NCBI GenBank assembly: GCA_000004985.1
Contig: GG738860.1
DNA length: 64,000 nucleotides
Source: Naegleria gruberi
Lineage: Eukaryota
Reading direction: 5' to 3' (one strand)
The position numbers and the translations under genes were made by a program. Below the pieces are notes generated by a model that ran no database searches, was not told the DNA's origin, and was given only the letters and a program-made list of their open reading frames with translations. Below, in pieces: positions 20,709 through 51,378 of the stretch (its first letter is position 1; each line of letters starts with the position of its first letter).

Positions 20709-20812
20709 GTTGTTGGAATTTTTTTTGATTTGTGAATTGGCCAATAATTATAATCACCTCAATTTTTGTCTCGAAACGAGGATGTGCTTGCAATTTAAAT
20801 TTTAAAAAAAAA

Positions 20813-21327
20813 ATGATGTCAGCAACAGGAAATCATCATGAACAACAAAATAATGAACAACAGCAGTCGGAAAGAGCCAACCGTAAAAAGATTTTAGATG
20901 CTGTCTTGGAGTATTATTCAGAGGCTTTTTCTATAGAAAAAAGTAACGAGCAAATTAAAAACAAAATGGACCTTTGTTTACCGAAACATGTCTGTAAGCG
21001 TATTTCATTTAAATTATTGAAAACAGGAGCAAATATAAATTCCATTAGTGAGAAAGTTTTGAAAATTCCAAAAAAAGAAAAGAAAATTGAAAATCATGAA
21101 GAAGTGCTTCTTTCCCAAGCAGACTTGGATGATTTTAATAAGGAACCAACACAACATGACACTGAGGAGAAAAAAAAACAAATAATGGAGTATACTGAGC
21201 AGTATGTTCAGAAAAAGTCACAGAGTGTGCTTTCACAGATGGATAGTATTACTTTTCCCAAAAAGATTAGAGCAAGACTTGATCAAATTTCTAATATTAT
21301 TGCTAAAACCTGTATTCATCTAGAAGA
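20813..21327 (+). CDS. 5' part of a gene interrupted by the scaffold gap. Hypothetical basic/acidic protein.
   Basis: ATG at 20813 (MMSATGNHHEQQNNEQ…). The ORF is open until the N run begins at 21328. Confidence 0.4.
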
Positions 21328-22811
21328 NNNNNNNNNNNNNNNNNNNNNNNNNNNNNNNNNNNNNNNNNNNNNNNNNNNNNNNNNNNNNNNNNNNNNNNNN
21401 NNNNNNNNNNNNNNNNNNNNNNNNNNNNNNNNNNNNNNNNNNNNNNNNNNNNNNNNNNNNNNNNNNNNNNNNNNNNNNNNNNNNNNNNNNNNNNNNNNNN
21501 NNNNNNNNNNNNNNNNNNNNNNNNNNNNNNNNNNNNNNNNNNNNNNNNNNNNNNNNNNNNNNNNNNNNNNNNNNNNNNNNNNNNNNNNNNNNNNNNNNNN
21601 NNNNNNNNNNNNNNNNNNNNNNNNNNNNNNNNNNNNNNNNNNNNNNNNNNNNNNNNNNNNNNNNNNNNNNNNNNNNNNNNNNNNNNNNNNNNNNNNNNNN
21701 NNNNNNNNNNNNNNNNNNNNNNNNNNNNNNNNNNNNNNNNNNNNNNNNNNNNNNNNNNNNNNNNNNNNNNNNNNNNNNNNNNNNNNNNNNNNNNNNNNNN
21801 NNNNNNNNNNNNNNNNNNNNNNNNNNNNNNNNNNNNNNNNNNNNNNNNNNNNNNNNNNNNNNNNNNNNNNNNNNNNNNNNNNNNNNNNNNNNNNNNNNNN
21901 NNNNNNNNNNNNNNNNNNNNNNNNNNNNNNNNNNNNNNNNNNNNNNNNNNNNNNNNNNNNNNNNNNNNNNNNNNNNNNNNNNNNNNNNNNNNNNNNNNNN
22001 NNNNNNNNNNNNNNNNNNNNNNNNNNNNNNNNNNNNNNNNNNNNNNNNNNNNNNNNNNNNNNNNNNNNNNNNNNNNNNNNNNNNNNNNNNNNNNNNNNNN
22101 NNNNNNNNNNNNNNNNNNNNNNNNNNNNNNNNNNNNNNNNNNNNNNNNNNNNNNNNNNNNNNNNNNNNNNNNNNNNNNNNNNNNNNNNNNNNNNNNNNNN
22201 NNNNNNNNNNNNNNNNNNNNNNNNNNNNNNNNNNNNNNNNNNNNNNNNNNNNNNNNNNNNNNNNNNNNNNNNNNNNNNNNNNNNNNNNNNNNNNNNNNNN
22301 NNNNNNNNNNNNNNNNNNNNNNNNNNNNNNNNNNNNNNNNNNNNNNNNNNNNNNNNNNNNNNNNNNNNNNNNNNNNNNNNNNNNNNNNNNNNNNNNNNNN
22401 NNNNNNNNNNNNNNNNNNNNNNNNNNNNNNNNNNNNNNNNNNNNNNNNNNNNNNNNNNNNNNNNNNNNNNNNNNNNNNNNNNNNNNNNNNNNNNNNNNNN
22501 NNNNNNNNNNNNNNNNNNNNNNNNNNNNNNNNNNNNNNNNNNNNNNNNNNNNNNNNNNNNNNNNNNNNNNNNNNNNNNNNNNNNNNNNNNNNNNNNNNNN
22601 NNNNNNNNNNNNNNNNNNNNNNNNNNNNNNNNNNNNNNNNNNNNNNNNNNNNNNNNNNNNNNNNNNNNNNNNNNNNNNNNNNNNNNNNNNNNNNNNNNNN
22701 NNNNNNNNNNNNNNNNNNNNNNNNNNNNNNNNNNNNNNNNNNNNNNNNNNNNNNNNNNNNNNNNNNNNNNNNNNNNNNNNNNNNNNNNNNNNNNNNNNNN
22801 NNNNNNNNNNN
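21328..22811. other. Assembly gap (1,484 N).
   Basis: Uninterrupted run of n characters. Confidence 0.99.
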
Positions 22812-23584
22812 ATTTAATTAACAATATGGAAATTAAATATTTAGGATTAAAAAATGAAATTTTTATTTCAATTTTATCACCAACAATTGTGTGGTATGAT
22901 TACTTTGTTTCAAATTATTGTAAAATTTATCCATTAAAAGATTATAAATTAATTTTATTATTAATTATTAAATTATTTATTGATAATTTAAATGGATTAA
23001 AATTATTACATGAATTAAATATTTCACATATTGATTTTAACATTTTAAATTCTAACATAATATTAAATAATTGTTCTGATTTAATTAGTAAATATTTAAA
23101 AGAAAATAATTTACCAACATTTAATATGGTATTAATTGATTTTAATAGTTCAAAATTAGAAAGTCAATTATTATTTACAAATGAATACATTCCAAAAACA
23201 ACACATTATCCTCCTGATTATAAATTATATTATGATAATATAAAACCAAATATATCATTTACAAAAGCACATGATATTTATTCATTATCTATTGTAATGA
23301 TTCAATATATTAACATTTTGATTAATTGTTATGGGAATAATTGCTTTCAAATGAAATCAAATACTATTAGATATATAAATCAATCACATAGAAACAAAGA
23401 CGAACCATTCAATATTGATTTTAATATTTTAAATTTTAATATTTTAAATAGTTTTGAAAAGGAAATTTTTAATGAATTATTTGAAATGATAAGAGAAATG
23501 AATTTAAACCCTTGGAAAATTATTAATGAAAAAGATTATTGTTTACAACAATTAGAAAAATTACAAAATAATGTATTGAATTAG
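22812..23584 (+). CDS. 3' fragment encoding a degenerate protein-kinase-like (pseudokinase-like) C-terminal region. It is about 85% AT.
   Basis: LHELNISHIDFNILNSNIIL corresponds to HRDLKPxN with the catalytic loop degraded. VLIDFNSS corresponds to DFG changed to DFN. HDIYSLSIVMIQYI corresponds to DxWSxG. NPWKII corresponds to HPW. It ends with TAG at 23582-23584. Continuity with the 5' part across the gap cannot be shown. Confidence 0.45.
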
Positions 23585-27532: not shown

Positions 27533-29245
27533 ATGGTACTACATGATGCTTCCCCAACAACAACGAGTAGTGCGGTTGACCAACAAATTAAACAATACAG
27601 GTTTAAAATAGAGGCTGTTTTTGACCACAAGGAGGCGAGAGAAATATTTAGGGAATATATGAAGAAGGATTGTCTCAATGAAGGTGAGTTTACTTTTACC
27701 TTTCGAATAATAATTATTGTGTTATTGTGATGGTTTCGAATTATCACCACCAATCAAAATAATCAATTAATTTCAAACACAACTCTCAATTAAAAATTTG
27801 AATAAGAACCCTTGTTATTTTACGAAAGTGTTGAAAAATACTTGAACACCCGATTAGATAAGAATCGATTAGAATTGGCTGCTGATATCACTGAACATTT
27901 CATCACAGTTAGCCAACATGAATTAAACCTCTCCATGTCTATTCGAAATGATATCCTAACCCGATGGGAACAAATCGAAGAAAGAAACAAGAATGTCATT
28001 GATGATGATTTAATTGCCTGTCCAATTGATTTATTCAGCAGAGCTCAGGATGTAATTTTCATCGAGATGAAACAAGATAATTTTTCAAGATTTGTCGATT
28101 CTGATATTTTCAAAAAGTTTCTAATAAGAGAATTGAAGAAGAATGATCATATTTTGGAATCTTTGGGCACGTGTAAATTCAATTCAAGAACTGGCTCTTT
28201 GGGAAGTTTATCATCTGAGGATTTGATGAATAATTTGACACCAGTTTCATCTTCCATTTCATCTTCACCATTACATGCAATTTCACATTCACAACCAAAT
28301 AATTCTAGTTTTTCTGGGAATGTGAATTTAACTCCAAGAAGTTCTCAAGATAGTGAGAGTGATTCACTCGATGAGAAAATTGCAACTTTCTATGAGAAAC
28401 AAAATGATTCGAATGAAAGTTTACTCTTGCCAATTATTGATGATATGAGTCCATATATAACTCCAAAAGATTATGATTTGGGAATGAAACTTGTAAATTC
28501 ATTGAATGATTCGAATATGTGGAAAACTATTGATGAAAAAGTTGGACTCAAGACACTTGTCAGTAATCCTGTTTTTAGTTTTTCTCCAAGAAAGAGTGAA
28601 AGTGGGAAGATAATTGTCTGCAATTCTGGAATTCTCACTGGTAAACCAAGAGATTGGTTGAATTTGTTATTCTCTGATTCTATCAATAAGATGATTCATG
28701 AAAAGATGAAGAAGAGATTCCAAGTTGACTATATCAAAATTAATCCAAAGAATGGAGCTCACTACCCAAACACAATAGTATACACTGAAGCTCAATTTCC
28801 ATTTCCATTGACTAATAGAGATTTCATCTTTTGTAGAAGTGTAATTCCAGATCTTTACAATGAAACTACTGGAGAATATGACAGATATGTCTTTATTCAA
28901 AAACCAACTCAACATCACGAATATCCAGCCAGAAACTCACCAATCAGAGCACTCCACTACATTTTCTACATTGTTGAAAAGAAGACTCAATCCAGTGTTA
29001 AATATTCAGTATTCGAAACTGGAGATCTCTCCGGCAAAATTCCACCAAAGATTGTTTCAAGCTTTTTCAAGACTATTGCTAATGCCATGCACAAGAAAGT
29101 CATCAAAGCATGTGAAAAGATCTATAACGAAGAAATCGTTTCCAAAGATGCTGATGGCGCCCTATCAACCCTCACTGAAATGCTCAAATATTTGGAACAT
29201 GAAAGAGCTAACAAGTCAAACTCAACAATAGCTGAAAAACATTAA
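27533..29245 (+). CDS. RGS-domain and START (StAR-related lipid-transfer) domain fusion protein. Two exons: 27533..27683, then about 27858 (or 27873)..29245.
   Basis: Exon 1 (track ORF 27533..27730) carries the RGS N-terminus FDHKEAREIFREYMKKDCLNE, followed by GTGAGT at 27684. The intron is AT-rich, about 175-190 nt, phase 1. Exon 2 contains the RGS C-terminus (…SQHELNLSMSIRNDIL…AQDVIFIEMKQDNFSRFVDSDIFKKFL). The START part aligns closely with PCTP: TIVYTEAQFPFPLTNRDFIFCR, SPIRALHY, VFETGDLSGKIPPKIVSSFFKTIANAMHKKVIKAC. The exact acceptor was not resolved. Confidence 0.6.
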
Positions 29246-29394: not shown

Positions 29395-30429
29395 ATGCAA
29401 ACAAAATTAAATGAATTACCGTTAGAATTGATAAGAGAAGTTCAATGTTACTCTAGTCGTGTTGAATTGATATTTTTGTGGAGTTTTACTTGTCGGAATT
29501 GGAGGCGAATGGTTTGTGAATTGATTTGGGAAGATTACAATGAAGTGATTAAGAAATTTTCCAATAACAGATACGAAATGAATTTCAATGATGATTATGA
29601 AAACTTTCTCTATTCGAAAGAAGGAAGAAAGTTTACTAAATATTTAATTAGAAAGCATGTTTACGAAATGGCTTGTCTCCTATCCGAAGAAGAAGAAATG
29701 ATTGCACAACATTTTGATTCAGTTTCGGAACGATGGATTGATGAACAATTGAAATATTTGAAAAATGTTTTTAATCAATTCTCAGATTTGAAATTAGAAA
29801 AACAAAGTTCAATTGAACTATCCAGATCAACACTATTCGACAATGCTCTTTCCTTCATAGGCTCCTTCTTCTTGCCAAATAATTCTTCAAATGATGTGAA
29901 GGATTTCGATTTCCTTTCAAAAATCCTATTGGAAGGAGAAAGATCGAGTGGAAAGTCATCGTTCCTCTATTGTGCAATGAATAATGGTGAAATTATTCAA
30001 AATTCAATGCCTCCAATTGCCTGTTTTGCTCGGAAAATATTAACAATTGGTCAAGAAAGAGTTAAGATTGAAGTGTGGGAAAGTGGTGGAGAAAGATATC
30101 GGCCTCTGATTGCTGCCAATTATCGAAGAGTTGAATTTATTTTGATATTTGTGGATCCTTTCAAATGGAATTCGAAACAGTCCACTGAATTATTGAGCAA
30201 AATCAAGGAAGATATTGAGAAATATTCATCGAAAAAGATTGAGGTTATCTTTATTACAACAAGGAAAGACATTGAACAAGAGAAACGAAACCTTTCTAAT
30301 GAAAAAGCAGATGAATATGCTTTTGATAATTATTTTGGAGCTCTACATTTCAATATTACAAATAATCAAGCTGAGGAACCAAAAAGAATCATTTGGTATT
30401 GCACATTACTCAAGTATTTACTTTCGTAA
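29395..30429 (+). CDS. F-box plus divergent Ras/Rab-like GTPase domain protein.
   Basis: The real ATG at 29395 gives MQTKLNELPLELIREVQCYSSRVELIFLWSFTCRNWRRMV, a strong F-box. The C-terminus has P-loop LLEGERSSGKSSFLY, a G3 region VKIEVWESGGERYRPL (DTAGQ changed to ESGGE) and G4 FITTRKD (NKxD changed to TRKD). Confidence 0.55.
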   Translation: MQTKLNELPLELIREVQCYSSRVELIFLWSFTCRNWRRMVCELIWEDYNEVIKKFSNNRYEMNFNDDYENFLYSKEGRKFTKYLIRKHVYEMACLLSEEEEMIAQHFDSVSERWIDEQLKYLKNVFNQFSDLKLEKQSSIELSRSTLFDNALSFIGSFFLPNNSSNDVKDFDFLSKILLEGERSSGKSSFLYCAMNNGEIIQNSMPPIACFARKILTIGQERVKIEVWESGGERYRPLIAANYRRVEFILIFVDPFKWNSKQSTELLSKIKEDIEKYSSKKIEVIFITTRKDIEQEKRNLSNEKADEYAFDNYFGALHFNITNNQAEEPKRIIWYCTLLKYLLS

Positions 30430-30498: not shown

Positions 30499-31202
30499 TT
30501 AGTTGATAGCAACAACTTCAACATCGAAAATCAAAACACTGTTAGCTGGAATTTTACCCATAGCCTATTGAGTAATAAATCATAAAAATTGTAATTATAA
30601 ATCAAATCAGTAAAATTATAAAATCAATAACTAACCCTTGATCCATATCCCATTTCACTAGGAATAACCAACTTTCTCTTTTCACCAACACAAGCTCCTC
30701 TGTATTAATAATGTAATTATACGACATTACATGAATTGTTAATCCACACTTTGTTTAACGTCAACTTACTGAAGACCAGCATCCCATCCTTTAATAACAC
30801 TACCTTGTCCAATCTGATTATTATTAAAATAATTAATGATGTCAAGTGGTATCCAATTCATTCCGATAACACGTGTTAAAATATCAAATCATCAATTATA
30901 TTTTGTTTGATCGGAATGTATTATTAAAATATTGATCAATAAATAGATAATATAACACTCATACATACAGTGAAGGAGAATGGTTGATTTCTGCTATAAC
31001 TAGAATCAAATTCAGTACCATCAGTCAAAGTACCTCTGTAGTGAACATCAATTTTATCACCATCCTTGATCTTTCTATCACAATCATTTGGTCTATACTT
31101 GACACCAACTTGCAATCTCTTCAAATCTTCATACTTGGCAAAGGAGGATGAAACACAGAAGGTAACAACCAACAACAAGGCAACAACAAGAGTAAATCTC
31201 AT
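30499..31202 (-). CDS. FKBP2: FKBP-type peptidyl-prolyl isomerase, ER-type (FKBP2-like) with a signal peptide. Four exons: 31202..30969, 30813..30770, 30699..30636 and 30564..30499.
   Basis: Exon 1: [16 protein letters not shown]…[49 protein letters not shown]|GTATGT. Exon 2: [15 protein letters not shown]. Exon 3: [21 protein letters not shown]. Exon 4: [21 protein letters not shown]. Introns are 155, 70 and 71 nt. The 5' splice sites are GTATGT, GTAAGT and GTTAGT. The total of 408 nt is in frame. Confidence 0.75.
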
Positions 31203-31299: not shown

Positions 31300-33143
31300 T
31301 TATTCTACATCATCATCATCATCTAGCATGGTATGAGTAATTTGTTCCTTAATTATGTACCTTTCGATTGATTCCCTTACTTGGGTTTGATAGGTATCGA
31401 GATTATCAAAGTAAATTCTTGGAACTGTACAAATTTCAATATAGTAAATCATTAAATAATTAACTAATACTTACTCAAATCACCAAATCCATTGACTTCA
31501 ACAATAAAGTGCTCTTGGAAATTCTCAGAAAACATCAAATCAACACCCAAACATAATGAGTTTGGAAAGCATTCATTAGCAATGCTCTCGCAAGTAACTT
31601 TCACCTTATCCCACGACCCAGGAGCCTTATATTCAAGTAACCTTAAAAAGTCATCACATTCTCCTCTCTTATTTCCTAAATGTAAATTGGTCATTGGATT
31701 TCTGGAAGTTCTTACAACGAAATTCATAATTTTTCCGCCTACAACTACAATTCTCAGATCGAAATTACCACGACCCATATAATCGGCTTTTTCAACCCAC
31801 TCCTCAACAATAGCTCCCTCAGCCAATACAAAATCTATTACTTGCTTAATATCCTCATTCTTTGTGTATCGTCTTATTCTCAATGAATTGTAAACTTTAA
31901 AGTATTGAGGGAAGTTTCTATCTCTAACTAGTTCAGAAGAGGTGGTTGCCAACTCTTTGAATACTGTCTCGGTAGATCCTATAATCCTCTGCTCAACAAA
32001 ACAATAGGCAATGACACCACTTGCTGAACTTCCATGAGCTAATTTTACAAATACTCTATTCATATTGTTGCTTTTCATGACTTCTACCATTTCGTCATAA
32101 TTTCTTACATTATAAAACCCTCTTGGAACAGGAATTCCATGTTTTACCAACAGAGAGTGACACATTCTCTTATCAAATGTTGATGAAATCTCATCTAGAG
32201 TGCTTGAAAATTGTCTGATACCATGTCCTCGAAGGATATCAAAAAGTTGTTCCAGAGCATTAATAAAGCCAAGATACCATTGTCTCACATATCTTACTTG
32301 CCCCAAATCAAAGGCCAGAATATTATTGATATCATACTCGCTCACTCTAGTTCCAAACTCTTCTTGGTTTATACCTTCACATCCCAATGATAATAAACCT
32401 CTTTCCACAAAGAAATTTTCACCTGGTGAGTCAATTCTCACAACAATATCCCCAGTTTCCAATTCTTCTCCTGTTTGTTTGAAATATTTTCTCTTCATCT
32501 TGTCAATGATTTGTTGCCAATCAATTGGTGCAATTTGATTATTATCAACCACATTAATTTGATGATTATGTGGGTTGACTATTCCAGTTGAGAGTAACAT
32601 TTCCCAAGTAACACATTCTCCTGGTGGCAATCCAAAGGATGACAAGGCAGCTTGGAAAAATCCAACTCTTCTATTTTCTTCATTTCCTATAATTAAAAAT
32701 CTTTGTTTAATACCTTTTACTGGTGCAAACTGAATCATTAAATTGTTAACAATACAAATGTTCCAAAATCGAATTAAACATACCACAAATCCATCAAATT
32801 TATTTCCTATCACTGTCATTCTATGAACATCAAATCCGATCAAGAATTTATATTTAATTAAATCCTTCAATAATTGTCTCCATTCTTTGCAAACCATCGA
32901 TAGGGTATGCACAAGATTTTTACGTTCATTCCTATCCTCTTCCGATTCTATAATGATAGAGAATATGAAACTCTTCACTCGTGAATGAATCAAGTCAAAT
33001 GTATCCCTCGATAATTGCACTGGTAATTGTCTAATTCTTTCAAAGCATTCCTGAGTGAAGGAAATATTTTGTCGATTTTCTATAGAAGTAGTATTGATGG
33101 TGCTGTCTTGTTGTGTGGATTCTTGTTGATGGTTTTGCAACAT
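31300..33143 (-). CDS. ATP-grasp fold enzyme (RimK/glutathione-synthetase-like ligase). Exons: 33143..31475 and a probable short 3' exon 31424..31300.
   Basis: Real ATG at 33141-33143. ATP-grasp-like motifs: NRVFVKLAHGSSASGV, DLRIVVVGGKIMNFVVRTS, NLHLGNKRG. The track ORF ends …GDLSKY* where GTAAGT follows GAT TTG A. A 50-nt intron to cAG at 31425-31426 extends the protein by …IPRIYFDNLDTYQTQVRESIERYIIKEQITHTMLDDDDDVE*. Confidence 0.55.
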
Positions 33144-35656: not shown

Positions 35657-38440
35657 GCTCAAACGAAAAGTCAACCCAACCAATCAGACTTCCAAATTCA
35701 CAGAAGAATCAACTCACTCCCAATACATAGACTCATCAAGGAAATCAATGTACTCACATTCGAATATTCAAATAATAATAAGCAACAAACACTAGATGAA
35801 CTGAATAAGAAGAAAGATGAACTGAAATACAAACAGAAGGAATTTTTTAAGAAAGAGAGAGATAGATGGCTACATATGATTAACAATACAAGTATTGGAT
35901 TTCTATATAGATTTGATGCAGATCTGAACACCAAGAATATCAATTGGAAAAATCTACCAGACAGCGTAAACAAAGATAGCACTCTCCAATTCTTCACACA
36001 GAAATTCAAGAAAGAATATGAAGAAATCAAAATCAAACTCCCAACATCAACAGTCAAAGAAGGTCCACAAGAGATCACAATTAACAAAGATGATATTCTA
36101 AGCACACTCAAGAGACTCAAATCTAAATCTACAGGCACAGACTTTATTACAAATGACTTACTCAAGGAAATGACAGAGACACAAGCAACACAATTAGCAA
36201 TAGAATTTAATAAGATGATTAGTGAAACAAAGGATATACCAATAATAATGAAAGAAGGTTGGATCAAATTAATCCCAAAGAAAGACTCTATTGTAACACA
36301 CAAAGACATTCGTCCTATCACAATAATGAGTACACTATACAGACTACTATTTAACATCATAGCAAGGAAAATAGGTAAATGGGCAAAAGATAACATCAAT
36401 ATTAGACAACAAGCATTCACATCTAACAGAGAAGTTAACAACCATATTCTAGTAATCCAAGCATTAAGAGTCAAATACAAGAAAACAAATGCATTTGTAA
36501 TCACCAACTTGGACATAGAAAATGCATATGACGGTGTAGAACATTGTGTCCTTAGATTAGCTATGAAACATTGTAAATTCCCACTAATGTATAACACAAT
36601 CACCCAAATTATAATAGATTACCAAATCGAGAATTGGAAAATACCTGGCACACCATCATTTAAAATTGAAGAAATAGGAACTCTTAATTTTGCTGATGAC
36701 TGCTCATTAGTAACACAACCCAACAAGAAACACAATACCAAACTCAAACAACTGAACAAATGGATAGGGAATCTCAAAATGAAAATCAATGCTTCTAAAT
36801 CAATAACTTCTGTCACACCGGAAAGAATAGCCCTTAAAGACTTCACAGTTAAGCTTGACGATACGTTAATACCAAGACAAACCAATCAAAGAACATTAGG
36901 AAACTACATCACAGAAGACCATCTCTTCACAAAAGAAATTGACAAAAGAGAAGCTAGAGTAACACAAATACTAAAAATACTTCCAATCCATTTGATAGAA
37001 CCAGAAAATCTCAAAAGAATCATAATGGGCAAGACAATTAGTAGTTTTATCCATCTAGCAAGAGGAAATTCAATTTCCAATCCTCGCCTACAAACAATTG
37101 ACTCAACAATTAGGGGTAACCTAAAAAGATCACTGAAGATCGATGCAAAGGTAAAACCATCCACAATGTATGCACAATTCGAAAGAAAAGGACTAGAAAT
37201 TCCAAACCTCGAATACATAGCCAACTCAATCCTTTGCAATAACTTAATCAACAAATTCCACTCAAGTAACCCACTTGTCAGAGAAGCAGTACAGTACGGA
37301 ATTAATAACTGTAACACGAACAAAACAAAACTACACAACATATTTGAAAAATTCCACTACATCCTAAAACAACAACACAAACTTACCACAACAATATGTA
37401 ACACCAATCATCAACTTCTGGAAAAGGAAAAAGATGAACAATACTCCTACTCAGAATTCACAATATGGACTGATGGATCCAAATCAGAAAACAAAGTAGG
37501 ATTCAGTATAATCATTCAGAACAACGAATTTACAAAAGGATACAAATACAAGCTCCACTCATACCACTCAAACAACATGGCTGAATTATCAGCAATTACA
37601 ACAGCACTACACATCATACCACCAAACAGCAATGCAAAGGTACTCACTGACAGTGAAATAGCAGTCAAAATAATTAACAACACAAATTACAAAGGTCAAT
37701 TTAAGCAAATCAAAGATGAAATTACCAACCTCATCAGCACTAAAAAACTTCAAGCATCCATCGAATGGACAAAAGCTCATACAGGAATAACAGATGGAAA
37801 TAACTACGCTGATAAGAAAGCCAAACAAGCCTCAAGAATAGGACATCGAATTGCACCCCAACATCTACTAACTCAAGGGCAATTAATTATCACCAATTCG
37901 AAAAAAGTTTGGAAAAGTAGAATCAAAGGAGTACTTAGTGAAAAGCTCTACAATCAAGGAACATCCGAACTCATCAACAGAACAAATCTCAATTACCTCA
38001 AAGAACATACCACCCCAGCTCACAAATACTCAATCTGGAGGCTCATGATAAATGGACACTTAAGAAGCCTCATAGTAGACAACCCACAATGCCCAACATG
38101 TAACAAAAACCTTGACACAGAACACCTCTTCATAGCATGCCCAGAAATGAATTCAGCTAGAAACTGGATGATTGAAGAAATCAAAAAAAATACCAATCTC
38201 GAACCAGTACTAAGCACAGAGAGGACAGAAATATTAACACCAAACTCATTCCAACTAAATATCTTTGATATTCTGACGGAACCTATTCAAGGTATTATCA
38301 AAGAACAATGGCCCAAGATACAAGGAGGCCTCTCACTTTTTGGAGGAAGAGTACAAAAACAATACAACAAAATCTTAAAAATTCAATAAGACGTTCCAAA
38401 TGGACGAACCCGTCGGGTTCATTCGATTAATAAACGTTTA
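35657..38440 (+). mobile_element. 5'-truncated non-LTR (LINE-like) retrotransposon carrying an RT-RNaseH-CCHC ORF and a 3' hairpin.
   Basis: The reading frame is open from 35657 to the stop at 38387-38389. RT motif FADDCSLV. RNase H motifs TDGSKSENKVGFSII…AELSAITTAL…HTGI. Zinc knuckle CPTCNKNLDTEHLFIACP. The 3' UTR hairpin gaacccgtcgggttc is followed by aataaacg. There is no endonuclease domain and no ORF1. Boundaries are approximate. Confidence 0.7.
35876..38389 (+). CDS. Reverse transcriptase / RNase H / zinc-knuckle polyprotein of the truncated non-LTR element.
   Basis: Track ORF of 837 aa. Motifs as listed for the mobile element. Confidence 0.7.
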   Translation: MINNTSIGFLYRFDADLNTKNINWKNLPDSVNKDSTLQFFTQKFKKEYEEIKIKLPTSTVKEGPQEITINKDDILSTLKRLKSKSTGTDFITNDLLKEMTETQATQLAIEFNKMISETKDIPIIMKEGWIKLIPKKDSIVTHKDIRPITIMSTLYRLLFNIIARKIGKWAKDNINIRQQAFTSNREVNNHILVIQALRVKYKKTNAFVITNLDIENAYDGVEHCVLRLAMKHCKFPLMYNTITQIIIDYQIENWKIPGTPSFKIEEIGTLNFADDCSLVTQPNKKHNTKLKQLNKWIGNLKMKINASKSITSVTPERIALKDFTVKLDDTLIPRQTNQRTLGNYITEDHLFTKEIDKREARVTQILKILPIHLIEPENLKRIIMGKTISSFIHLARGNSISNPRLQTIDSTIRGNLKRSLKIDAKVKPSTMYAQFERKGLEIPNLEYIANSILCNNLINKFHSSNPLVREAVQYGINNCNTNKTKLHNIFEKFHYILKQQHKLTTTICNTNHQLLEKEKDEQYSYSEFTIWTDGSKSENKVGFSIIIQNNEFTKGYKYKLHSYHSNNMAELSAITTALHIIPPNSNAKVLTDSEIAVKIINNTNYKGQFKQIKDEITNLISTKKLQASIEWTKAHTGITDGNNYADKKAKQASRIGHRIAPQHLLTQGQLIITNSKKVWKSRIKGVLSEKLYNQGTSELINRTNLNYLKEHTTPAHKYSIWRLMINGHLRSLIVDNPQCPTCNKNLDTEHLFIACPEMNSARNWMIEEIKKNTNLEPVLSTERTEILTPNSFQLNIFDILTEPIQGIIKEQWPKIQGGLSLFGGRVQKQYNKILKIQ

Positions 38441-41077: not shown

Positions 41078-42252
41078 TAATTGTGAATAAACAATCAAAT
41101 AATAATAATACTACTAATAATAATAATAATAATAATAGTAATAATAGTACATCTAATAATGGTCCAAAATTAAATAGATACCAAACTAAACACAGAGTCA
41201 TCATTTGTAATTACGACCAAAATGAATCAATCAACAAATTGGCAAATTATTTAAAAATAAGTCCTAATAATGTATTCGGAATGAAGGTAGATAATAATTT
41301 GAAATTAGCTATATTATACTTTAGAAACAAACAACTAGCAGAAAATTGTATTAACAAAAATTCTAATCTTGCTATATGCCATCAAACTACTGTAACTGAA
41401 TTTAAATATAATATTAAATTAGAAATTAATGAAGAAAATATTAAAAAAGTTTGGACAGAATTTAATAATTCAGAAAACCATGACAATATGGGAGATGAAG
41501 CAGATAAACCAAATACTAAAATTATATCTATGAATATGGTAACATCTACTAAATATTGGTCAATCCACACCAACACCCTTGTTAGCGAAACATTAATGAA
41601 AAAATTGGAATTAACTAGAGACCTAGATAAATCAGTGTCTTTCGTTATTAATTTAGGAGATAATATTAATATTAGACATGATGAATTGGAAAAAACTATT
41701 GAAGAACAATGGAAAGTTAAACCAAGAGTAACTTGCTCCAATGATAAAAAAATGTTCGCTGTTGTCCCAATTAATCAATTAGCTACAGCCTCAATCACTA
41801 GAGAGATTTATTTTGAAAATCATATCCTCAAAAATCTATCCTATAGCTATTACAAAAAGAAAAGTTTTAAAATTAAATTTAAAAAAATGGAAGAAGAATT
41901 AAAAAATCGTACATTGGAAAATGAAGTTCTTACTGAAAGTTTGGACTATTTGGAAGATAAATTTGAAACTCTCAAAACGAACATCAAAGAGGATTTTACA
42001 TCTAGAATTACTTACCTAGAACAAGAAACAATTACCAAATCTATGCTGAAAGAAGAATTTGAATTAAATAATTCACAAATTTCAGTTCAATTTGATAAAC
42101 ATAAAATTGAGATGAAAGAATCTGTAACTAATCAACTAAAAGAAAATCATGATTCTATCATCAATCATATGAATATAACTATGAAACAAAATTTTGCGGG
42201 TTTATTTGAAGAATTTAGAAACCTAGGGGTACTTCCAACACCCAAACAATGA
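40939..42252 (+). CDS. Retrotransposon ORF1 protein with a poly-Asn N-terminus, an RRM-like core and C-terminal coiled coil.
   Basis: The first ATG is at 40939; the track start at 40834 is a TTG inside flanking DNA. Sequence: MNNNKRRINRQK…(N)n…RVIICNYDQNESINKLANYL…. Confidence 0.65.
41035..41076 (+). repeat. (AAT)14 microsatellite encoding poly-Asn inside ORF1.
   Basis: Direct read of aat repeats. Confidence 0.9.
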
Positions 42253-42773
42253 GTCTAAATAATCATATTCAATTAGCTACATGTAATCTATCGTGTTTTA
42301 ATCTCTCAAAACAAACATGTTTGCTTAACAATATAGATAGACACAATCTGCACGTTATTGCAGTACAAGAGACTCACTGGGACATATCAAATAACGAACA
42401 ACTCAGATTAGCAACAAATTTATTTAACAATTGTTACGTATTTAATAGTTTCAAACAACCAAGTGACCATTTTGGAGGAATATTAACTCTAATTAGAAAA
42501 GACACTCAAATTAACCTCCTTTCATATGAAGAATTAATCAAAGGCCGATTAACAAATGTTAAAGTAGAACTTAACAACAAAACTATTAATTTTGTTAATT
42601 GGTATGGAAGAATTAAAATGGACAATATATATTTTGAAATTTTTAATATACTAACAGAACTAATTCAATATTGTATGGTACACAATGAATATTTATATAT
42701 ATTAGGTGATACAAATATGACAACAATACCAAGCACCAAATTTAGCAGACTTTCTCCAAAAGATAAAAACTAA
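42249..42773 (+). CDS. Retrotransposon ORF2, N-terminal part (apurinic/apyrimidinic-type endonuclease), terminated by a frameshift.
   Basis: MSLNNHIQLATCNLSCFN…HVIAVQETHW… The stop TAA at 42771-42773 lies right after an A5 run (gataaaaact). Confidence 0.65.
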   Translation: MSLNNHIQLATCNLSCFNLSKQTCLLNNIDRHNLHVIAVQETHWDISNNEQLRLATNLFNNCYVFNSFKQPSDHFGGILTLIRKDTQINLLSYEELIKGRLTNVKVELNNKTINFVNWYGRIKMDNIYFEIFNILTELIQYCMVHNEYLYILGDTNMTTIPSTKFSRLSPKDKN

Positions 42774-45706
42774 TACAATGGATAAGCGAATATAGGTTGT
42801 ATGATTTTAATTCAACAAACATTCAACCATCTTTCACACAATTCAATGGATCATCAGTATATGCTAAATCACGACCAGATCATATTATTGCTAATATTAA
42901 CAATCACATATCTAGTAAAGATATTGACACCTTTACTCAACATAACATAGTATGTGCTACTGTTGACCTACAATATGAACCAAAAACTTTCTCTCTACCA
43001 TTTACAAAAAATATATATAATTGGGAAAAAATTAAAGATAATATTGAAAATATTAAATTAAAAATTTTACAATCCAATTACAACACGGTAGAAGATATTC
43101 AAAATCATTTAATTACAATTTTACAAGAATTTACCTATCAAAAAAGAAAATCAAATAATGTAACAAATTGTAAAGAATATCAAGAATTATTCAAATTAAA
43201 AAACGATATTAACAAATATTATTTAAAAAAAAAGAAAAATTTAAATAAGAAAAGTATTGAATTATTTAATAATAATAACAACCCTTCCAGAGATGAAATC
43301 AAAGTTAAATTAGTAGAACTTGATGATAAAATGGATTCAGTTATTAAAGTTAAATTAAAGGAAAGAAAACAAGCATTCATTAATGAAGTTAATGATTTAA
43401 CAACGAAAAAACCATTTAGTTACCCATTTAGAAAAGAATCTAAACACTCATCTATCTTCAATGTAACTAACTCGGTCAATTTTGAAAAAGAAATAATAGA
43501 CCACTTTTCTAAAATGTTCAATACTGAACTCCCCAACTCTGACATTGAATTCACACATATAATTAATGATATCAACAATAATAATCAAATCAACCTATTC
43601 ACATCAGAATCATTATATGAAACAATCTCAAATACGAAAAATTCAATGGCAGGGTGGGATAATATACCCATAAAATTCCTGAAATTGTTAGATGAAGAAT
43701 GTATAGAAAAATTTGTAATTCCATTTAACAATATTCTTGAAGGAAAAACCCAAATACCACAATCATTCAAACAAGGTCTACTTCTTCCCCTTCCAAAAGT
43801 TAATAATCCTTCAAAATTGGGAAACTTTAGACCAATAGTGGTATTACCAACTCTATATAGAATTCTCTCTACTTTCATTAATTCTCAAATAATGAACATA
43901 ATTAACACTAATAATAATTTATTAAATGAATGTCAAAGAGGATTCTTGAAGAATAGTTCAACAACAGATAACCTATCAGTAGTGAAAACAGTATTGAATT
44001 CATACTTGAACAATAACAAATCAATATTCATTTCTACATTGGATATTAAAAATGCTTATGGTTCTGTAATTCACTCTAAACTGATAGATATTTTAGAAGC
44101 AAAAGGATTTGATAGTCATATATGTAACCTTGTGAAAGACATGATCACCAATCATAAAATTAAGATTCTTGCTAATAATTCAGTGTCAGCAGAATTTAAT
44201 TCAACACTTGGTGTTCCTCAAGGTGACCCTTCAAGCCCTATTCTCTTCAACCTATATTTCGATCTAATAACGCAAGTTATTAAAGAATTCAAAGGAATCT
44301 CATTTGGAGATATTAACGTGGTAATCTTATTATATGCTGATGATATAATTATTCTCAGTGAAACAGCATATGAAATGAATGCAATCCTAAAAAGATTAAC
44401 AGAAATAGGAAATCAAATTGGATTACATTTCGCAGAAGAAAAGTGTAAAGTAGTAGGTATCACACCTGCAGGTAACAGGTCAAAAGCAAAAATCTGGATG
44501 AATAATATTAATATTAATAACAAAAAACATGACTTGGAGTACCTTGGAGCCATTCTTAATGGTAGTAATTTCAACTGGAATACACCATCCAGTGTATTAG
44601 ATAAAATTACATTCAGAACTCAATCTTTCAAACCAAAAATGTTAAAACTAAACACTGCAAGAGTGGTGTTTCAATCTAAAGTAATATCAATCCCCAGATA
44701 CTTATGTAGTGTCGGTTGTTTCCCAAAATCTAAATTGGAGAAATTGGATAAATATATTTCAGGACAAATCAAAATGAAAATGGGATGGGATTGTAGACTG
44801 TCTAAAGCAGTAATGTATGGAGAAAAATCTATTGGGGGTCTAGGACTAATATCACCCTCAAATATTTACTATATAGAACAATGTGCTGCTTTATACAGAT
44901 TTGTTAACTCATCATCGTCTATTACTCGTTATGTGATGAGAAAAGCATTACTAGATGTGGAACAAGCATTAGACAGCAACAACTATTTAGAAGAATTTAT
45001 TTTAAATTTAATTAACAACAACTGGAATTGGATCGAACCAAGAAATCTAGATTCTTCAGAATGGATATTAATCAAGCAAAACAAAACTTCACCAGACATC
45101 AGGCAAGAATTACTAGCTCATCTTAGAAGTAAGATGACACCTAGCTTGATGGGCAATTTAGATAAAAATAACGAATGGCACAGATTGACATTAAATTTCT
45201 GGTCTAATCCAACACTTTCACTATACCAACAAAAGATATGCTTTGCAAACTTGCACAAAGCAATTAGAATCAATAATATTGATGACAAAGAACCAATTAT
45301 TTGTGAATCCTGTAATACCAGTGCAACTTGGGATCACATATTTTGGGAATGCTCTCGATGTATACACGAACGTACTGAATGTCAACGGTTATATGATGAA
45401 ATCTCACTCACCTATAACCTTAATAAGATTGAAATCAACACAACATCAAGCTCCCCATCAACTCTTACTTTCTCTCCAAATGGAATCATCTTAAAATCAA
45501 ATTACAAAATATGGAAAAAGAAAAAGATCGTTAAATCAGAAGTTCTAAATCAAATTTATAGAATTTACGTTCAATATGTTGAAAATTGTTACAAAAATTC
45601 TGATTGGAACTCAAAACTAGGTCCAAAAAGGAACTACTCTATCTCAACAAAACAAAAAAACCACCCTACATCATGGCAAATCCACCAACAACTAAGCCAA
45701 CGATAA
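42767..45706 (+). CDS. Retrotransposon ORF2 continuation (APE C-terminus, reverse transcriptase, Cys-rich domain) in the -1 frame.
   Basis: The frame is open from 42767, overlapping the end of the APE ORF. Sequence: …RPDHIIANINN… (APE SDH-like motif), then RT blocks including YADD, then the zinc finger. The track lists it from 42797 (TTG). Confidence 0.65.
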   Translation, partial: KLIQWISEYRLYDFNSTNIQPSFTQFNGSSVYAKSRPDHIIANINNHISSKDIDTFTQHNIVCATVDLQYEPKTFSLPFTKNIYNWEKIKDNIENIKLKILQSNYNTVEDIQNHLITILQEFTYQKRKSNNVTNCKEYQELFKLKNDINKYYLKKKKNLNKKSIELFNNNNNPSRDEIKVKLVELDDKMDSVIKVKLKERKQAFINEVNDLTTKKPFSYPFRKESKHSSIFNVTNSVNFEKEIIDHFSKMFNTELPNSDIEFTHIINDINNNNQINLFTSESLYETISNTKNSMAGWDNIPIKFLKLLDEECIEKFVIPFNNILEGKTQIPQSFKQGLLLPLPKVNNPSKLGNFRPIVVLPTLYRILSTFINSQIMNIINTNNNLLNECQRGFLKNSSTTDNLSVVKTVLNSYLNNNKSIFISTLDIKNAYGSVIHSKLIDILEAKGFDSHICNLVKDMITNHKIKILANNSVSAEFNSTLGVPQGDPSSPILFNLYFDLITQVIKEFKGISFGDINVVILLYADDIIILSETAYEMNAILKRLTEIGNQIGLHFAEEKCKVVGITPAGNRSKAKIWMNNININNKKHDLEYLGAILNGSNFNWNTPSSVLDKITFRTQSFKPKMLKLNTARVVFQSKVISIPRYLCSVGCFPKSKLEKLDKYISGQIKMKMGWDCRLSKAVMYGEKSIGGLGLISPSNIYYIEQCAALYRFVNSSSSITRYVMRKALLDVEQALDSNNYLEEFILNLINNNWNWIEPRNLDSSEWILIKQNKTSPDIRQELLAHLRSKMTPSLMGNLDKNNEWHRLTLNFWSNPTLSLYQQKICFANLHKAIRINNIDDKEPIICESCNTSATWDHIFWECSRCIHERTECQRLYDEISLTYNLNKIEINTTSSSPSTLTFSPNGIILKSNYKIWKKKKIVKSEVLNQIYRIYVQYVENCYKNSDWNSKLGPKRNYSISTKQKNHPTSWQIHQQLSQR

Positions 45707-47960: not shown

Positions 47961-49433
47961 TTAATGTTTGAACCTGAACTGCATTTCTTCCTCACATGTT
48001 GCACTATCAATCTTGAATAGAATTTCCTCCCTCAATAGGTGAATATTTGGCATATTCAACTCATAAACTCCACCAAACGTCAGATAATTATCAACAACTT
48101 GAAATGCCAGTAATTTCCTCTTTTTGAAAGTGCTAGCTAATTTGAATTTGGAAATGTCTTTGTAAACAAGGACACCTTCAGGACAGAATGATCTCCTTGA
48201 ATATTCCAGTAACATTTCACAAGTTTCACTCTTATTTAAAGCCCATTCCAATTCAGAATCGAATACTTCCACCTTTTGATATCTCTTCATAATAGAATAA
48301 ATTACTGGAAGAGTCACTGTAACAATTATTTCCAAACTCAAGTACAGAAACATGATCAACCCAGCAGGTATAATATGATCCACAACTCTATAAAACGATT
48401 GACCTAAGGTAATATATAGTCCTACACAAACTACTTGAAGAATCAGTATCAAAATAGACTCCACCTTAATAAAGTATGTGTCCTTCTCAGTTTTCAATAG
48501 AAGAACCAAACACACAAGTTGAATAATCAAATAGACACAATAGGTGATTCCACCAATGTATGTAATGGATTCTAATGCATAACATCCCTCAAAGGAAAGC
48601 ATTGATTCGTCCTCCATTAGAAATCTCGAATTTGGATGTAAAGAATCTTCAAAAATTGCTAATGAAAACCAGAATATGATATGAAATCCATAAACGGCTA
48701 AAAATATAGAAATTAACCATTTGTGGGATTGTAAAATGTAATTGGAATAAATGAAGAATTTCTCTATTTGTTTTAGGTTTTGATGTGAGGCGATTTTGTT
48801 TCTAATAGTTTTCAGAACGGGAGCTCTATACACCATTACTGGAATCAAAGTATTTGGACTGTTCGGTGAAGAATAAACTGAACTAATCACTGTAACAATA
48901 TCATTTTGCTTTTCATTTTCTCTGAATTTTGATTCTTTCAAAAGGTTGAATCTCCATTGTACATACACTCTTAGACATCTAATAATTGTTGGAATGGAGA
49001 AACATGGTGGCATTAGAAAGAAAACTAAACTAAATAAGATACAAGGGAAGATTTCTCTACCAATAATAAACCTTAAAGAAAAGATGGTAAATACAAAGAA
49101 ACTTGAAACGAGAGTAAAAAACATGCCAGCAATTGTCCTAGCTCTGATATGATCCGAGTTTCTGTTCCATACGAAACCAATTATACTCGAAACTACAAGC
49201 ATCAAATAAACCCCCAAACACAACCCTGACAGAATCGGGACTGACAATACATCAGGACACTGCCCAGGAAAATTCCTCATGTCGTTTACCATTTTCAAGG
49301 AAAAAAACCAGCTTGGACATTGTGTATTATTGAAATGGGGTAAATGTGGTTGTTGTTCCGTTTGCTGAAAAGCAAGAGAATGGAAGAAGAGGGAATATTT
49401 GGGAAATGTTGCAGTGATTGGTGGGTTGTTCAT
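47961..49433 (-). CDS. 7TM receptor with a C-terminal RGS domain (paralog 1). The RGS C-terminus is disrupted by a 5-nt frameshift. Possible pseudogene or sequence error.
   Basis: Seven hydrophobic helices. N-terminal QCPDVLSVPILSGL. C-terminal LLEYSRRSFCPEGVLVYKDISKFK…AFQVVDNYLTFGGVYELNMPNIHLLREEILFKIDSAT is RGS-like. The -1 frame 47821..47960 encodes the missing last RGS helix VQVQTLINLKDVFERLRRSNERMRKLLEEW, which matches paralog 2. Confidence 0.55.
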   Translation of the reverse strand: MNNPPITATFPKYSLFFHSLAFQQTEQQPHLPHFNNTQCPSWFFSLKMVNDMRNFPGQCPDVLSVPILSGLCLGVYLMLVVSSIIGFVWNRNSDHIRARTIAGMFFTLVSSFFVFTIFSLRFIIGREIFPCILFSLVFFLMPPCFSIPTIIRCLRVYVQWRFNLLKESKFRENEKQNDIVTVISSVYSSPNSPNTLIPVMVYRAPVLKTIRNKIASHQNLKQIEKFFIYSNYILQSHKWLISIFLAVYGFHIIFWFSLAIFEDSLHPNSRFLMEDESMLSFEGCYALESITYIGGITYCVYLIIQLVCLVLLLKTEKDTYFIKVESILILILQVVCVGLYITLGQSFYRVVDHIIPAGLIMFLYLSLEIIVTVTLPVIYSIMKRYQKVEVFDSELEWALNKSETCEMLLEYSRRSFCPEGVLVYKDISKFKLASTFKKRKLLAFQVVDNYLTFGGVYELNMPNIHLLREEILFKIDSATCEEEMQFRFKH

Positions 49434-49716: not shown

Positions 49717-51378
49717 TTATTTAACTCTTGCTGTTGGAGGTGATCTTGAAGAAACTGGAATATTATCTTTTTCTTTCCACTCTTGCAATACCTTTCTAAT
49801 CTTCTCATTAGCATATCTCAACCTTTCCAAAACATCTTGCAATGTGAGAAGAGCTTGAAATTGGACCTCCTCAAACAAGTCGTCTGTCAATTCATCATTA
49901 CACATTGCACTATTGATTTTCAACAAGATGTCTTCCCTTATAACATTCATATTTGGTAAATTCAGCTCGTAAACTCCACTAGATGTCAAATAACACTTCA
50001 CAATGTCCAAGGCAATGAGTTTTCTCTTTTTAAAGCATCTAGCCTGTTTAAATTTGGTAATATCCTTATAGACAAGAACACCTTCAGGACAGAAAGATCT
50101 TCTCGAATATTCCAACAATATTTCACAAGTTTCATTCTTATTAAGAATAAACTCCAATTCATTACTGAATACTTCAATTGTTCTCAAATCTTTCACAATG
50201 GCATACAGAACTGGTAATGTTATAGTGATGAATATCTCAGCTCCACAGTAATAAATCATAATTAGGCCAGTTGGGAATACACGATCATATACTTTGAAAA
50301 AATCCATTGTACAACAAATATATATAATGGCAGCTGTAATTTGAACAATGATTGTAATAATTGTTTCTCCTTTGATAAAGTATGTATCCTTTTCAGTCCT
50401 TAATAACCAAATAAAAGCCACAACTTCAATAATGAAGTAAAACACAAAAAGAATGATAATTACAATATTGATTGGCGGTTTTGTGTAGCAACCTTTCAGT
50501 GATATCATTGAAGCTTCCTGCATGAAAATCATTGTCTCTGAAAAGAAAGATTCCTCCACGGCTGCCAAACTAAACCAAATCAAAGATTGAATTCCATACA
50601 CGCACACAAATATGAAAGTTTTCCACTTTTTTGAATGGAAAATAAGATTTGCTTTTCTATAAATGTTTTCCTTCTCCTCAATCTTATTGTGAAGATCTAG
50701 ATATTGTTTAAATTCTGTCCATTTGTCCTGATTAGTTTCCAATATTCGATTTGGAAATGTTAACGACCCAGTCAATATTGGACTCGATGGCGTTCGACAC
50801 ACAACACCACTCCCTATCAATTCTCCTTCACCACCTCCATTCATTTCTTTACAATTTTCATCCAATTCATTCTTTCTCATTTCATTTTCCTTAAAATTCT
50901 GAGCTTTAAACCAATTCACTCTCCACTGAGTATAAACTCTCAAACTCCTCAACGTATTTGGCACTGTAAAACTTGCTGGCATCATGAAAAACATGAAACT
51001 GTATAATAAACATGGAAATTGCTCTCTGGAAATCATGTACCTCAATGAATAGACGCTCACTATGAAAATACTTGAGAAAATTGTAAAGTGCATGCCAGCT
51101 GTTGATCGTGCCATGACGTGGGTGGAGTTTCTCTTCCAAATGAATCCAAATATTGAGAGAGAAACCAGGCAAATATAAAATACGAAAGATAGTCCTGAAA
51201 TTATGGGAACGGAAATGGCATCTGGACATTGATCAGGGATGTTTCGATTACGAGGGACGAGAGTAAGGGAAAGTAACCAGGTGGGACATTCTGTGGAATT
51301 GTTATTGGAAGTAAGATTAGTTGATGAATTGCTTTCGTATAATGTTTCGAATAATGTGTTTGATACTTGATAAAACAT
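49717..51378 (-). CDS. 7TM receptor with a complete C-terminal RGS domain (paralog 2).
   Basis: 553 aa with a real ATG. Seven hydrophobic helices. QCPDAISVPIISGL. RGS: ILLEYSRRSFCPEGVLVYKDITKFK…ALDIVKCYLTSSGVYELNLPNMNVIREDILLKINSA…FEEVQFQALLTLQDVLERLRYAN. Confidence 0.6.
   Translation of the reverse strand: MFYQVSNTLFETLYESNSSTNLTSNNNSTECPTWLLSLTLVPRNRNIPDQCPDAISVPIISGLSFVFYICLVSLSIFGFIWKRNSTHVMARSTAGMHFTIFSSIFIVSVYSLRYMISREQFPCLLYSFMFFMMPASFTVPNTLRSLRVYTQWRVNWFKAQNFKENEMRKNELDENCKEMNGGGEGELIGSGVVCRTPSSPILTGSLTFPNRILETNQDKWTEFKQYLDLHNKIEEKENIYRKANLIFHSKKWKTFIFVCVYGIQSLIWFSLAAVEESFFSETMIFMQEASMISLKGCYTKPPINIVIIILFVFYFIIEVVAFIWLLRTEKDTYFIKGETIITIIVQITAAIIYICCTMDFFKVYDRVFPTGLIMIYYCGAEIFITITLPVLYAIVKDLRTIEVFSNELEFILNKNETCEILLEYSRRSFCPEGVLVYKDITKFKQARCFKKRKLIALDIVKCYLTSSGVYELNLPNMNVIREDILLKINSAMCNDELTDDLFEEVQFQALLTLQDVLERLRYANEKIRKVLQEWKEKDNIPVSSRSPPTARVK

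Follow-up and report, generated by a model that had tools for sequence, protein, structure and literature searches.

When an F-box is followed in one polypeptide by a small-GTPase domain with altered catalytic motifs, is the product a nucleotide-controlled adaptor of a ubiquitin ligase, an adaptor that uses the GTPase fold for recognition, or the remnant of a gene in decay? This question is raised by a gene of Naegleria gruberi, NAEGRDRAFT_65991 (aliases XP_002678758.1, EFC46014.1 and D2VAV3), which occupies positions 29395 to 30429 on the + strand of a 64,000-nucleotide stretch of contig GG738860.1 (assembly GCA_000004985.1). The whole of that stretch is called the window here, and all coordinates are positions within it. 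The encoded protein is a divergent member of a Naegleria-specific, fast-evolving family of F-box/Rab-like proteins, and we consider it fairly probable that it serves as an SCF (Skp1-cullin-F-box)-type or Skp1 adaptor with a pseudoGTPase domain as its interaction module.

The original prediction, made from the DNA sequence, had described an F-box followed by a small-GTPase domain, and had suggested that substrates are recruited to an SCF complex in a manner dependent on the state of the bound nucleotide. The latter idea was not new. Herman et al. (2021; BMC Biol 19:142, PMC8296547), who re-annotated the N. gruberi Ras superfamily, described subgroups of divergent Rab-like proteins that are specific to Naegleria and carry an F-box at the N-terminus, together with their expansions (Additional files 4 and 10), and proposed a 'GTPase-dependent ubiquitination' for the F-box GTPases of Naegleria (Additional file 4). 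The gene family, the corrected gene model and the ubiquitination hypothesis are already published, in 2021, and the current understanding is unchanged for that reason. What is added here is small: the recognition by homology of the F-box in a family member that carries no such tag, and a residue-level account of the erosion of its G motifs.

The reading frame and its N-terminal F-box

The gene is a single-exon open reading frame (ORF) on the + strand, running from the first ATG at 29395 to a TAA at 30427-30429 and encoding 344 amino acids. There is a stop codon in the same frame upstream of the ATG, immediately before 29335. The composition profile around the locus is that of AT-rich eukaryotic DNA, with a G+C content of ~32%, and at the local base composition a run of 344 codons free of stops would arise by chance with P ~5e-12. 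The product is 100% identical to the 253-residue N. gruberi 'predicted protein' XP_002678758.1, which in the NCBI/RefSeq model begins at an internal methionine, Met92 (29668), and thus lacks the F-box together with one half of the linker that follows it. The coding stretch left out of the RefSeq/GenBank model corresponds to 29395-29667 (+).

Which of the two starts is correct? HMMER was run exhaustively against 1.84 billion representative proteins and yielded eight homologs that are colinear with the N-terminus (P0002-P0005, P0017, P0021, P0022 and P0128). All eight align from residue 5-7 of the query and seven of them extend to ~residue 340; the same scan also gave relatives that match part of the query only. 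Since the homologs align from residue 5-7, the N-terminus is a conserved part of the coding sequence, and it is therefore the RefSeq model that is truncated. We have rejected the start at Met92, given that residues 5-91 are conserved in paralogs of three Naegleria species and in metagenomic sequences, and the correct start should be 29395. The published corrected model (Herman et al., 2021, Table S8) is the same 344-residue protein as the ORF, which supports the complete coding sequence at 29395..30429 (+) alongside the match to the 253-residue NCBI protein. The model of a paralog, XP_002675157.1 (P0013), is also truncated, within its own F-box, and has been corrected in the same table. An NCBIfam scan of the 344-residue protein gave no match, as expected for a eukaryotic protein.

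In Table S8 the gene is entered as XP_002678758.1*, in the class 'Rab', with no putative-pseudogene flag, an empty additional-domain column and no ortholog outside Heterolobosea (PMC8296547). The closest paralogs (XP_002677004.1, XP_002669579.1, XP_002670359.1* and XP_002674580.1*) are tagged 'F-box' in that table, as are dozens of Rab-like genes of N. gruberi (PMC8296547).

Does the untagged protein carry an F-box? The original prediction had called it a strong one. The F-box itself is upheld by the comparisons below; its strength is not. Against the Pfam F-box family PF00646 the N-terminus scored 11.3 bits (E=0.35; gathering cut-off 20.5), and against the F-box-like family PF12937 10.7 bits (E=0.47; cut-off 24.3), so that both matches lie below threshold. 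The family as a whole is clearer. A Pfam F-box or F-box-like match at E<=0.01 was found in 12 of 15 members (best values 2.5e-7 and 8.1e-9), and a profile of the family N-terminus matched 15 chains of the PDB, every one an F-box protein aligned at its F-box (FBXL17, 6e-5; FBH1, 2e-4; FBXW7, 3e-3; FBXO44, FBXO6 and Skp2). When the query was compared with a profile of the F-box region of its paralogs, from which it had itself been excluded, the score was 40.8 bits, with E=1e-10 for a proteome-sized search. By way of the paralog family only, sequence comparison establishes the N-terminus of the query as homologous to bona fide F-boxes.

The degenerate F-box covers residues 7-45 (29413..29529, +), as delimited by the paralog profile and an AlphaFold2 model, and within it the F-box-like segment LPLELIREVQCYSSRVELIFLWSFTCRNWRRMV (residues 8-40) was located in the ORF at 29416-29514 (+). 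An LP motif at residues 8-9 is followed directly by three predicted helices, at residues 10-18, 22-27 and 34-55. In the profile alignment Ser20 takes the place of the Leu, and Thr32 that of the Val, found in most F-boxes; the weak individual score results from these polar residues at two usually hydrophobic positions. The AlphaFold2 model was computed with a family alignment of 17 sequences and has a predicted local distance difference test (pLDDT) score of 74.8 and a predicted template modeling (pTM) score of 0.79; a model from the single sequence (pLDDT 36) was not usable, and the family-alignment run was used instead.

Between the F-box and the G domain the family alignments and the predicted helices (residues 64-72, 75-105 and 113-126) define a family-specific helical linker, residues 46-131 (29530..29787, +), with the conserved motifs GRxFxKxLLRxxVxExA and ELxxLKxYFxxFxD and no match in a Pfam scan of these residues. 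It is followed by a disordered, low-complexity spacer of low model confidence, residues 132-168 (29788..29898, +; pLDDT <50 for residues 133-168), within which an amphipathic helix, LFDNALSFIGSFF (residues 147-159; 29833-29871, +), is conserved across the paralogs.

The family to which these comparisons refer was assembled as an end-to-end alignment of the eight homologs with P0008, P0013 and P0018. Cluster look-up placed at least 7 paralogs, P0160 among them, in N. gruberi, and other members in N. fowleri, N. lovaniensis and metagenomes. The nearest relatives of the query are N. gruberi paralogs, with 38-42% identity over residues 8-344. A word-indexed homolog search returned the gene itself only and, with the N-terminal profile, 4 proteins only. 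The proteins P0007, P0009, P0010, P0014, P0053 and P0102, which are long and matched in several stretches, were considered as candidates resembling FRP, the euglenozoan F-box/GTPase protein discussed below, and were rejected as tandem multi-Rab proteins or fusions of Rab with kinase or TerD domains. P0060, a bacterial PAS histidine kinase, was discarded as a spurious match.

One metagenomic member, P0017, is encoded at 4266-5405 of contig ERZ27315067 k141_1471914, and its G domain is even more eroded than that of the query (GKNS, NIGVKY, FWGPYIPYDW). The contig is compact and eukaryotic, with adjoining genes for Sec5, Rcd1 and PIG-P. Because P0017 lies in this setting, the family is also present in uncultured amoebae, presumably heterolobosean.

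The G domain and the erosion of its motifs

Residues 169-344 (29899..30426, +) form the Rab-like G domain. The Pfam Ras family PF00071 matched residues 176-312 with 50.3 bits (E=2.5e-13), its cut-off being 21.6, so that a small-GTPase model recognizes the domain comfortably. The predicted order of the two domains, F-box first, is supported. Matches to the Roc and Arf families were weaker than that to Ras. Among solved structures, Rab30, Rab3 and Rab8 are the nearest to it in sequence (E ~1e-11). Rabs are the top matches by fold as well, the model having a small-GTPase fold of the Rab type, and we assign the domain as Rab-like on this best-match evidence from sequence and predicted fold.

How far have the motifs departed from those of a working GTPase? 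They were compared in alignments with HRas, ten ordinary Rabs, Rab structures and the members of the family. The first motif is intact, as had been predicted. The G1 or P-loop segment GERSSGKSS, residues 181-189 (29935..29961, +), contains GERSSGKS at residues 181-188, which conforms to the canonical GxxxxGK[ST], the family having GxxxxGKT. The second is not. In the switch I/G2 region, PPIACF (30010..30027, +), the sequence TIGVDF of Rabs and of most paralogs is represented by PIAC-F, with one residue deleted and Pro207 at the position of the switch-I Thr; the absence of this Thr had been proposed, and the alignments with Rab structures, HRas and Rabs bear it out.

At G3, residues 228-233 (30076..30093, +), the Rab sequence WDTAGQE is WDQCGPERF in the family and WES-GGE in the query, with Glu for Asp, the Gly kept, a one-residue deletion and no Gln. 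The original prediction was right in reading WESGGE and in concluding that the catalytic Gln is lost, but it took this for a substitution of Gln by Glu, and the alignment favors a deletion of the Gln together with an Asp-to-Glu change. The conservation of the supposed Glu-for-Gln exchange was to be followed in orthologs; the HMMER scan and cluster look-up gave no 1:1 ortholog for such a comparison, the nearest paralogs being those at 38-42% identity. At G4, residues 289-292 (30259..30270, +), NKxD of Rabs is TKxD in the family and, as had been noted from the sequence, TRKD in the query, in which Asp292 alone is retained. The G5 region reads ITNN (30355..30366, +) in place of (T)SAK; the core of the motif is SAK in Rabs, TNT in the family (consensus ITNT) and TNN in the query. 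The protein ends with a highly conserved helix, WYCTLLKYLLS (30394..30426, +), identified from the alignments and from a predicted helix at residues 327-343 (pLDDT ~90). It contains no CC, CXC or CaaX motif, so the domain lacks a C-terminal Cys prenylation motif; the family is likewise without one.

Part of this divergence is common to the family, which lacks the catalytic Gln (Pro standing in its place) and uses TKxD and TNT; the canonical DTAGQ occurs in no member. Asp292, Glu283 and Tyr335 are invariant. The query has gone further than the family state, in that the switch-I Thr and the Asp of DxxG are also lost, both of which the four closest paralogs mostly keep. Comparable erosion has occurred independently in P0004, P0017, P0022, P0128 and XP_002674580.1. 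We considered sequencing error as the source of the unusual motifs and rejected it: the deviations are in frame, the non-canonical G3, G4 and G5 motifs are found family-wide, in homologs as in the query, and the independently curated model has the same sequence. The odd G motifs are genuine evolutionary states.

Could the domain nonetheless be a working switch with non-canonical chemistry, in which the Glu of WESGG stands in for the Asp, a GTPase-activating protein (GAP) supplies residues in trans, and recruitment to the SCF complex follows the nucleotide state? TKxD-type G4 motifs are functional in Rac and Cdc42, and RabGAPs of the TBC type provide a Gln finger in trans. The P-loop GxxxxGKS of the query is intact and the Asp of G4 is kept, and with these two features a genuine, albeit unusual, nucleotide cycle could still take place. 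The query, however, has no switch-I Thr, the sensor of the γ-phosphate and Mg2+; it carries deletions in the G2 and G3 regions alike, its G4 has Arg where NKxD has Lys, its G5 reads TNN instead of SAK, and in sum four of its five G motifs are compromised. The absence of switching is the more probable state because two residues that link the γ-phosphate and Mg2+ to the conformation of the switch, the Thr of switch I and the Asp of DxxG, are both gone. We regard a working switch in this protein as very improbable, and the nucleotide-state-dependent recruitment put forward in the original prediction as the least likely reading of it. The idea may perhaps apply to better-preserved paralogs; members of the family in which TIGVDF and WDxxG are intact may well act as switches.

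Proposed role of the protein

The role that we favor for the protein is that of an adaptor. Its F-box would dock to Skp1, either within an SCF ubiquitin ligase or in another Skp1 complex, and its Rab-like domain would act as the module that recognizes a substrate or partner. The position of the Rab-like domain makes a recognition function probable, since it is placed where the WD40, LRR and kelch domains sit in classical F-box proteins. As judged from its motifs, the G domain would be a pseudoGTPase, either nucleotide-bound or empty, and would act neither as a GTP/GDP switch nor as an efficient hydrolase.

An alternative role begins from the G domain, which is Rab-like by sequence and fold. 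The F-box might serve the turnover of the protein itself by auto-ubiquitination, or place it in a non-SCF Skp1 complex in membrane traffic, the Rab-like domain then being the functional output. In yeast, Rcy1 and Skp1 form a non-SCF complex of this kind that acts in membrane traffic. The euglenozoan protein TbFRP (Tb927.7.3790), which comprises FYVE, F-box and Ras-like GTPase domains, offers a precedent for self-turnover, in that its F-box was linked by its authors to the fast breakdown of the protein (PMC3593210). The query, however, has no means of membrane anchorage of the kinds sought: it has no prenylation Cys, and a Pfam scan of it found neither FYVE (not even at E<=10) nor another lipid-binding domain. 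The switch residues for a cycle of effector binding are lost, and the G domain lies C-terminal to the F-box and linker, in the substrate-binding position of classical F-box proteins. We consider a role in self-turnover or traffic to be quite unlikely.

A further question is whether the gene has a function at all. It could be a decaying paralog that is effectively non-functional, a young pseudogene with its frame still open, relaxed selection wearing away its F-box as well as its G motifs. The query is the outlier of its sub-clade in every region, having 44% identity to its paralogs in the F-box, compared with 63% among the paralogs, and 48% in the G domain, compared with 62%. Its F-box falls under the Pfam threshold that the closest paralogs exceed, its G2 and G3 motifs contain in-frame one-residue deletions, and the HMMER scan and cluster look-up revealed no 1:1 ortholog in N. 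fowleri or N. lovaniensis. Birth-and-death evolution with pseudogenes has been described for the family (Herman et al., 2021; PMC8296547). The recurrence of independent motif decay in the other members named above can be placed on the same side, yet G motifs that are lost repeatedly while the fold persists look more like the sign of a whole family moving to a non-catalytic role. Moreover, 344 codons have remained without a stop in AT-rich DNA. The hydrophobic core, the β5-α5 residues and the last ~60 residues are well conserved with respect to the paralogs, WYCTLLKYLLS being nearly identical, and the residues invariant in the family (Asp292, Glu283 and Tyr335) are present. The curators of Table S8 did not flag the gene as a pseudogene. 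On this evidence decay is unlikely. With its ORF intact, its core and C-terminal residues conserved and no curator flag, the gene is likely still functional.

The adaptor role has points against it. These are the divergence of the query from its own sub-clade, the lack of a detected 1:1 ortholog, the birth-and-death evolution of the family, the residual capacity for a nucleotide cycle suggested by the P-loop and the G4 Asp, and the two Pfam scores below threshold. With such a score and with polar residues at Ser20 and Thr32, the sequence of the F-box is one in which Skp1 binding could have been lost.

What would follow if the proteins of the family are SCF adaptors? Naegleria would then provide a large natural series in which the Rab fold grades from a plausible switch to a pseudoGTPase, the query being among the most motif-eroded members of its sub-clade. 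The series would be useful for studying the re-use of GTPase domains as recognition modules, and the wiring of ubiquitination to small GTPases outside animals. For the locus itself the gains are the correction of the RefSeq start to 29395 and an N-terminus, hitherto untagged, for which homology allows the annotation of a degenerate F-box.

A wider proposal, which we put forward tentatively and hold to be possible rather than probable, is that in Naegleria the Rab fold has repeatedly been turned into a nucleotide-independent SCF substrate receptor, with a role of the arms-race type or at the interface with the environment. On this proposal the query, P0004, P0017, P0022 and P0128 would be constitutive 'pseudo-Rab' F-box receptors, and the rapid birth-and-death turnover of the family would be a reflection of such a role, comparable to that of the expanded F-box-LRR and FBA families of plants and nematodes.

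Neighboring genes and comparison with known systems

The gene upstream of the query, represented by an ORF at 27812-29245 (+) that ends 150 bp before the ATG, encodes an RGS domain (E=2.9e-11) and a START lipid-binding domain (E=6.6e-5); the ORF probably covers no more than the 3' exon of its gene. Downstream, at 30936-31202 (-), lies an FKBP-type prolyl isomerase with a signal peptide. Because its ORF stops after 39 of the 94 profile positions, this gene evidently continues over an intron towards ~30500-30700. The next gene but one, at 31464-33143 (-), encodes a protein of 559 residues with a weak F-box-like match at residues 79-99 (PF00646, E=0.026; '...LSMVCKEWRQLL') and a C-terminal ATP-grasp domain (RimK, E=6.7e-7; ATPgrasp_ST, 9e-5). 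This gene, too, may be an unusual F-box fusion of Naegleria.

Elsewhere in the window, an ORF of 811 residues at 2324-4759 (+) encodes a large GTPase resembling the guanylate-binding proteins (GBP N-terminal domain, 1.1e-19; C-terminal domain, 1.9e-9). An assembly gap of ~1,480 N occupies ~21328-22811, and this run accounts for two kinds of artefact: very low G+C in the composition profile at 20-24 kb, and long 'ORFs', one at 20732-23584 (+) and one at 21316-22824 (-). Retroelement-like ORFs are found at 35876-38389 (+), with reverse transcriptase (RVT_1, 1.6e-14) and RNase_H (4e-17) domains, and at 42249-45706 (+), with RVT_1 at 9.7e-37 and a short preceding ORF whose N-terminus is endonuclease-like; both are probably copies of non-LTR (long terminal repeat) retrotransposons. 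Two adjacent ORFs at 47961-49433 (-) and 49717-51378 (-), of ~490 and 553 residues, have similar N-terminal halves and no Pfam match. In both, the N-terminal pattern '...QCPD[VA][LI]SVPI[LI]SGL...' precedes hydrophobic stretches, and the two resemble a tandem pair of uncharacterized membrane proteins.

How does the query compare with systems that are already known? It is closest to the F-box/Rab-like subgroups of Naegleria themselves, which have the same architecture, the same linker motifs and the same C-terminal helix, and in which the catalytic Gln and the canonical NKxD and SAK are absent as they are in the query. It differs from the tagged paralogs in that its F-box is too degenerate to have received the Table S8 tag.

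A similar architecture exists in another discoban lineage. The euglenozoan FRP also has an F-box ahead of a Rab-like G domain that is divergent and non-prenylated, and in it too G3 lacks the Gln (FDISGHPRF or YDLSGADRY) and there is no NKxD (...VVVCGL...; PMC3593210 supplementary alignment). It differs in having an N-terminal FYVE domain, which the query does not, the ORF of the latter starting 6 residues before the F-box. The authors of the FRP study did not find an N. gruberi ortholog (PMC3593210). We compared the Naegleria family with seven FRP sequences that begin at the F-box and extend to the C-terminus, and that had been machine-read with some errors from the supplementary alignment. 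A hidden Markov model of the Naegleria family gave these FRPs 7-22 bits, in the G domain only, compared with 94-135 bits for ordinary Rabs. In hhalign the F-box and linker of the family matched those of FRP with a probability of 2%, and a full-length comparison aligned the G domains only. We therefore rejected orthology to FRP on the basis of these machine-read sequences, and on sequence grounds it is best to regard the two architectures as having arisen by separate fusions. The comparison suggests that in both discoban lineages GTPase domains linked to an F-box tend to be non-canonical.

The query also resembles the pseudoGTPases, in which the Ras-like fold is kept and residues for hydrolysis or switching are lost, features that in the query are known from its sequence and the structural model. 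Membership of that class is defined biochemically, through the binding and hydrolysis of nucleotide, whereas the query is assigned to it by sequence and still has an intact P-loop.

Among cullin-RING ligases there are two functional analogs. Rab40 is described as a Rab joined to a SOCS box that acts as an adaptor of Cullin5 in cullin-RING ligase 5 (CRL5; PMC8129794), and RhoBTB as an atypical Rho joined to BTB that acts as a Cullin3 adaptor (PMC4931677). Both share with the query the fusion of a small-GTPase domain to a module that docks to a cullin-RING ligase, a likeness of function only; the docking module is an N-terminal F-box for Skp1 and Cul1 in the query, whereas it is C-terminal in the other two, a SOCS box for Cul5 in Rab40 and BTB for Cul3 in RhoBTB. 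A Pfam scan of the query found neither a SOCS box nor a BTB domain, and its sequence relationship to Rab40 and RhoBTB goes no further than the fold of the Ras superfamily. Rab40, moreover, keeps canonical G motifs and prenylation. Should the Rab fold indeed have been converted into an SCF receptor in Naegleria, this would be a third independent cullin-RING adaptor built on a GTPase fold, beside Rab40 and RhoBTB, with FRP as a possible fourth that is likewise independent.

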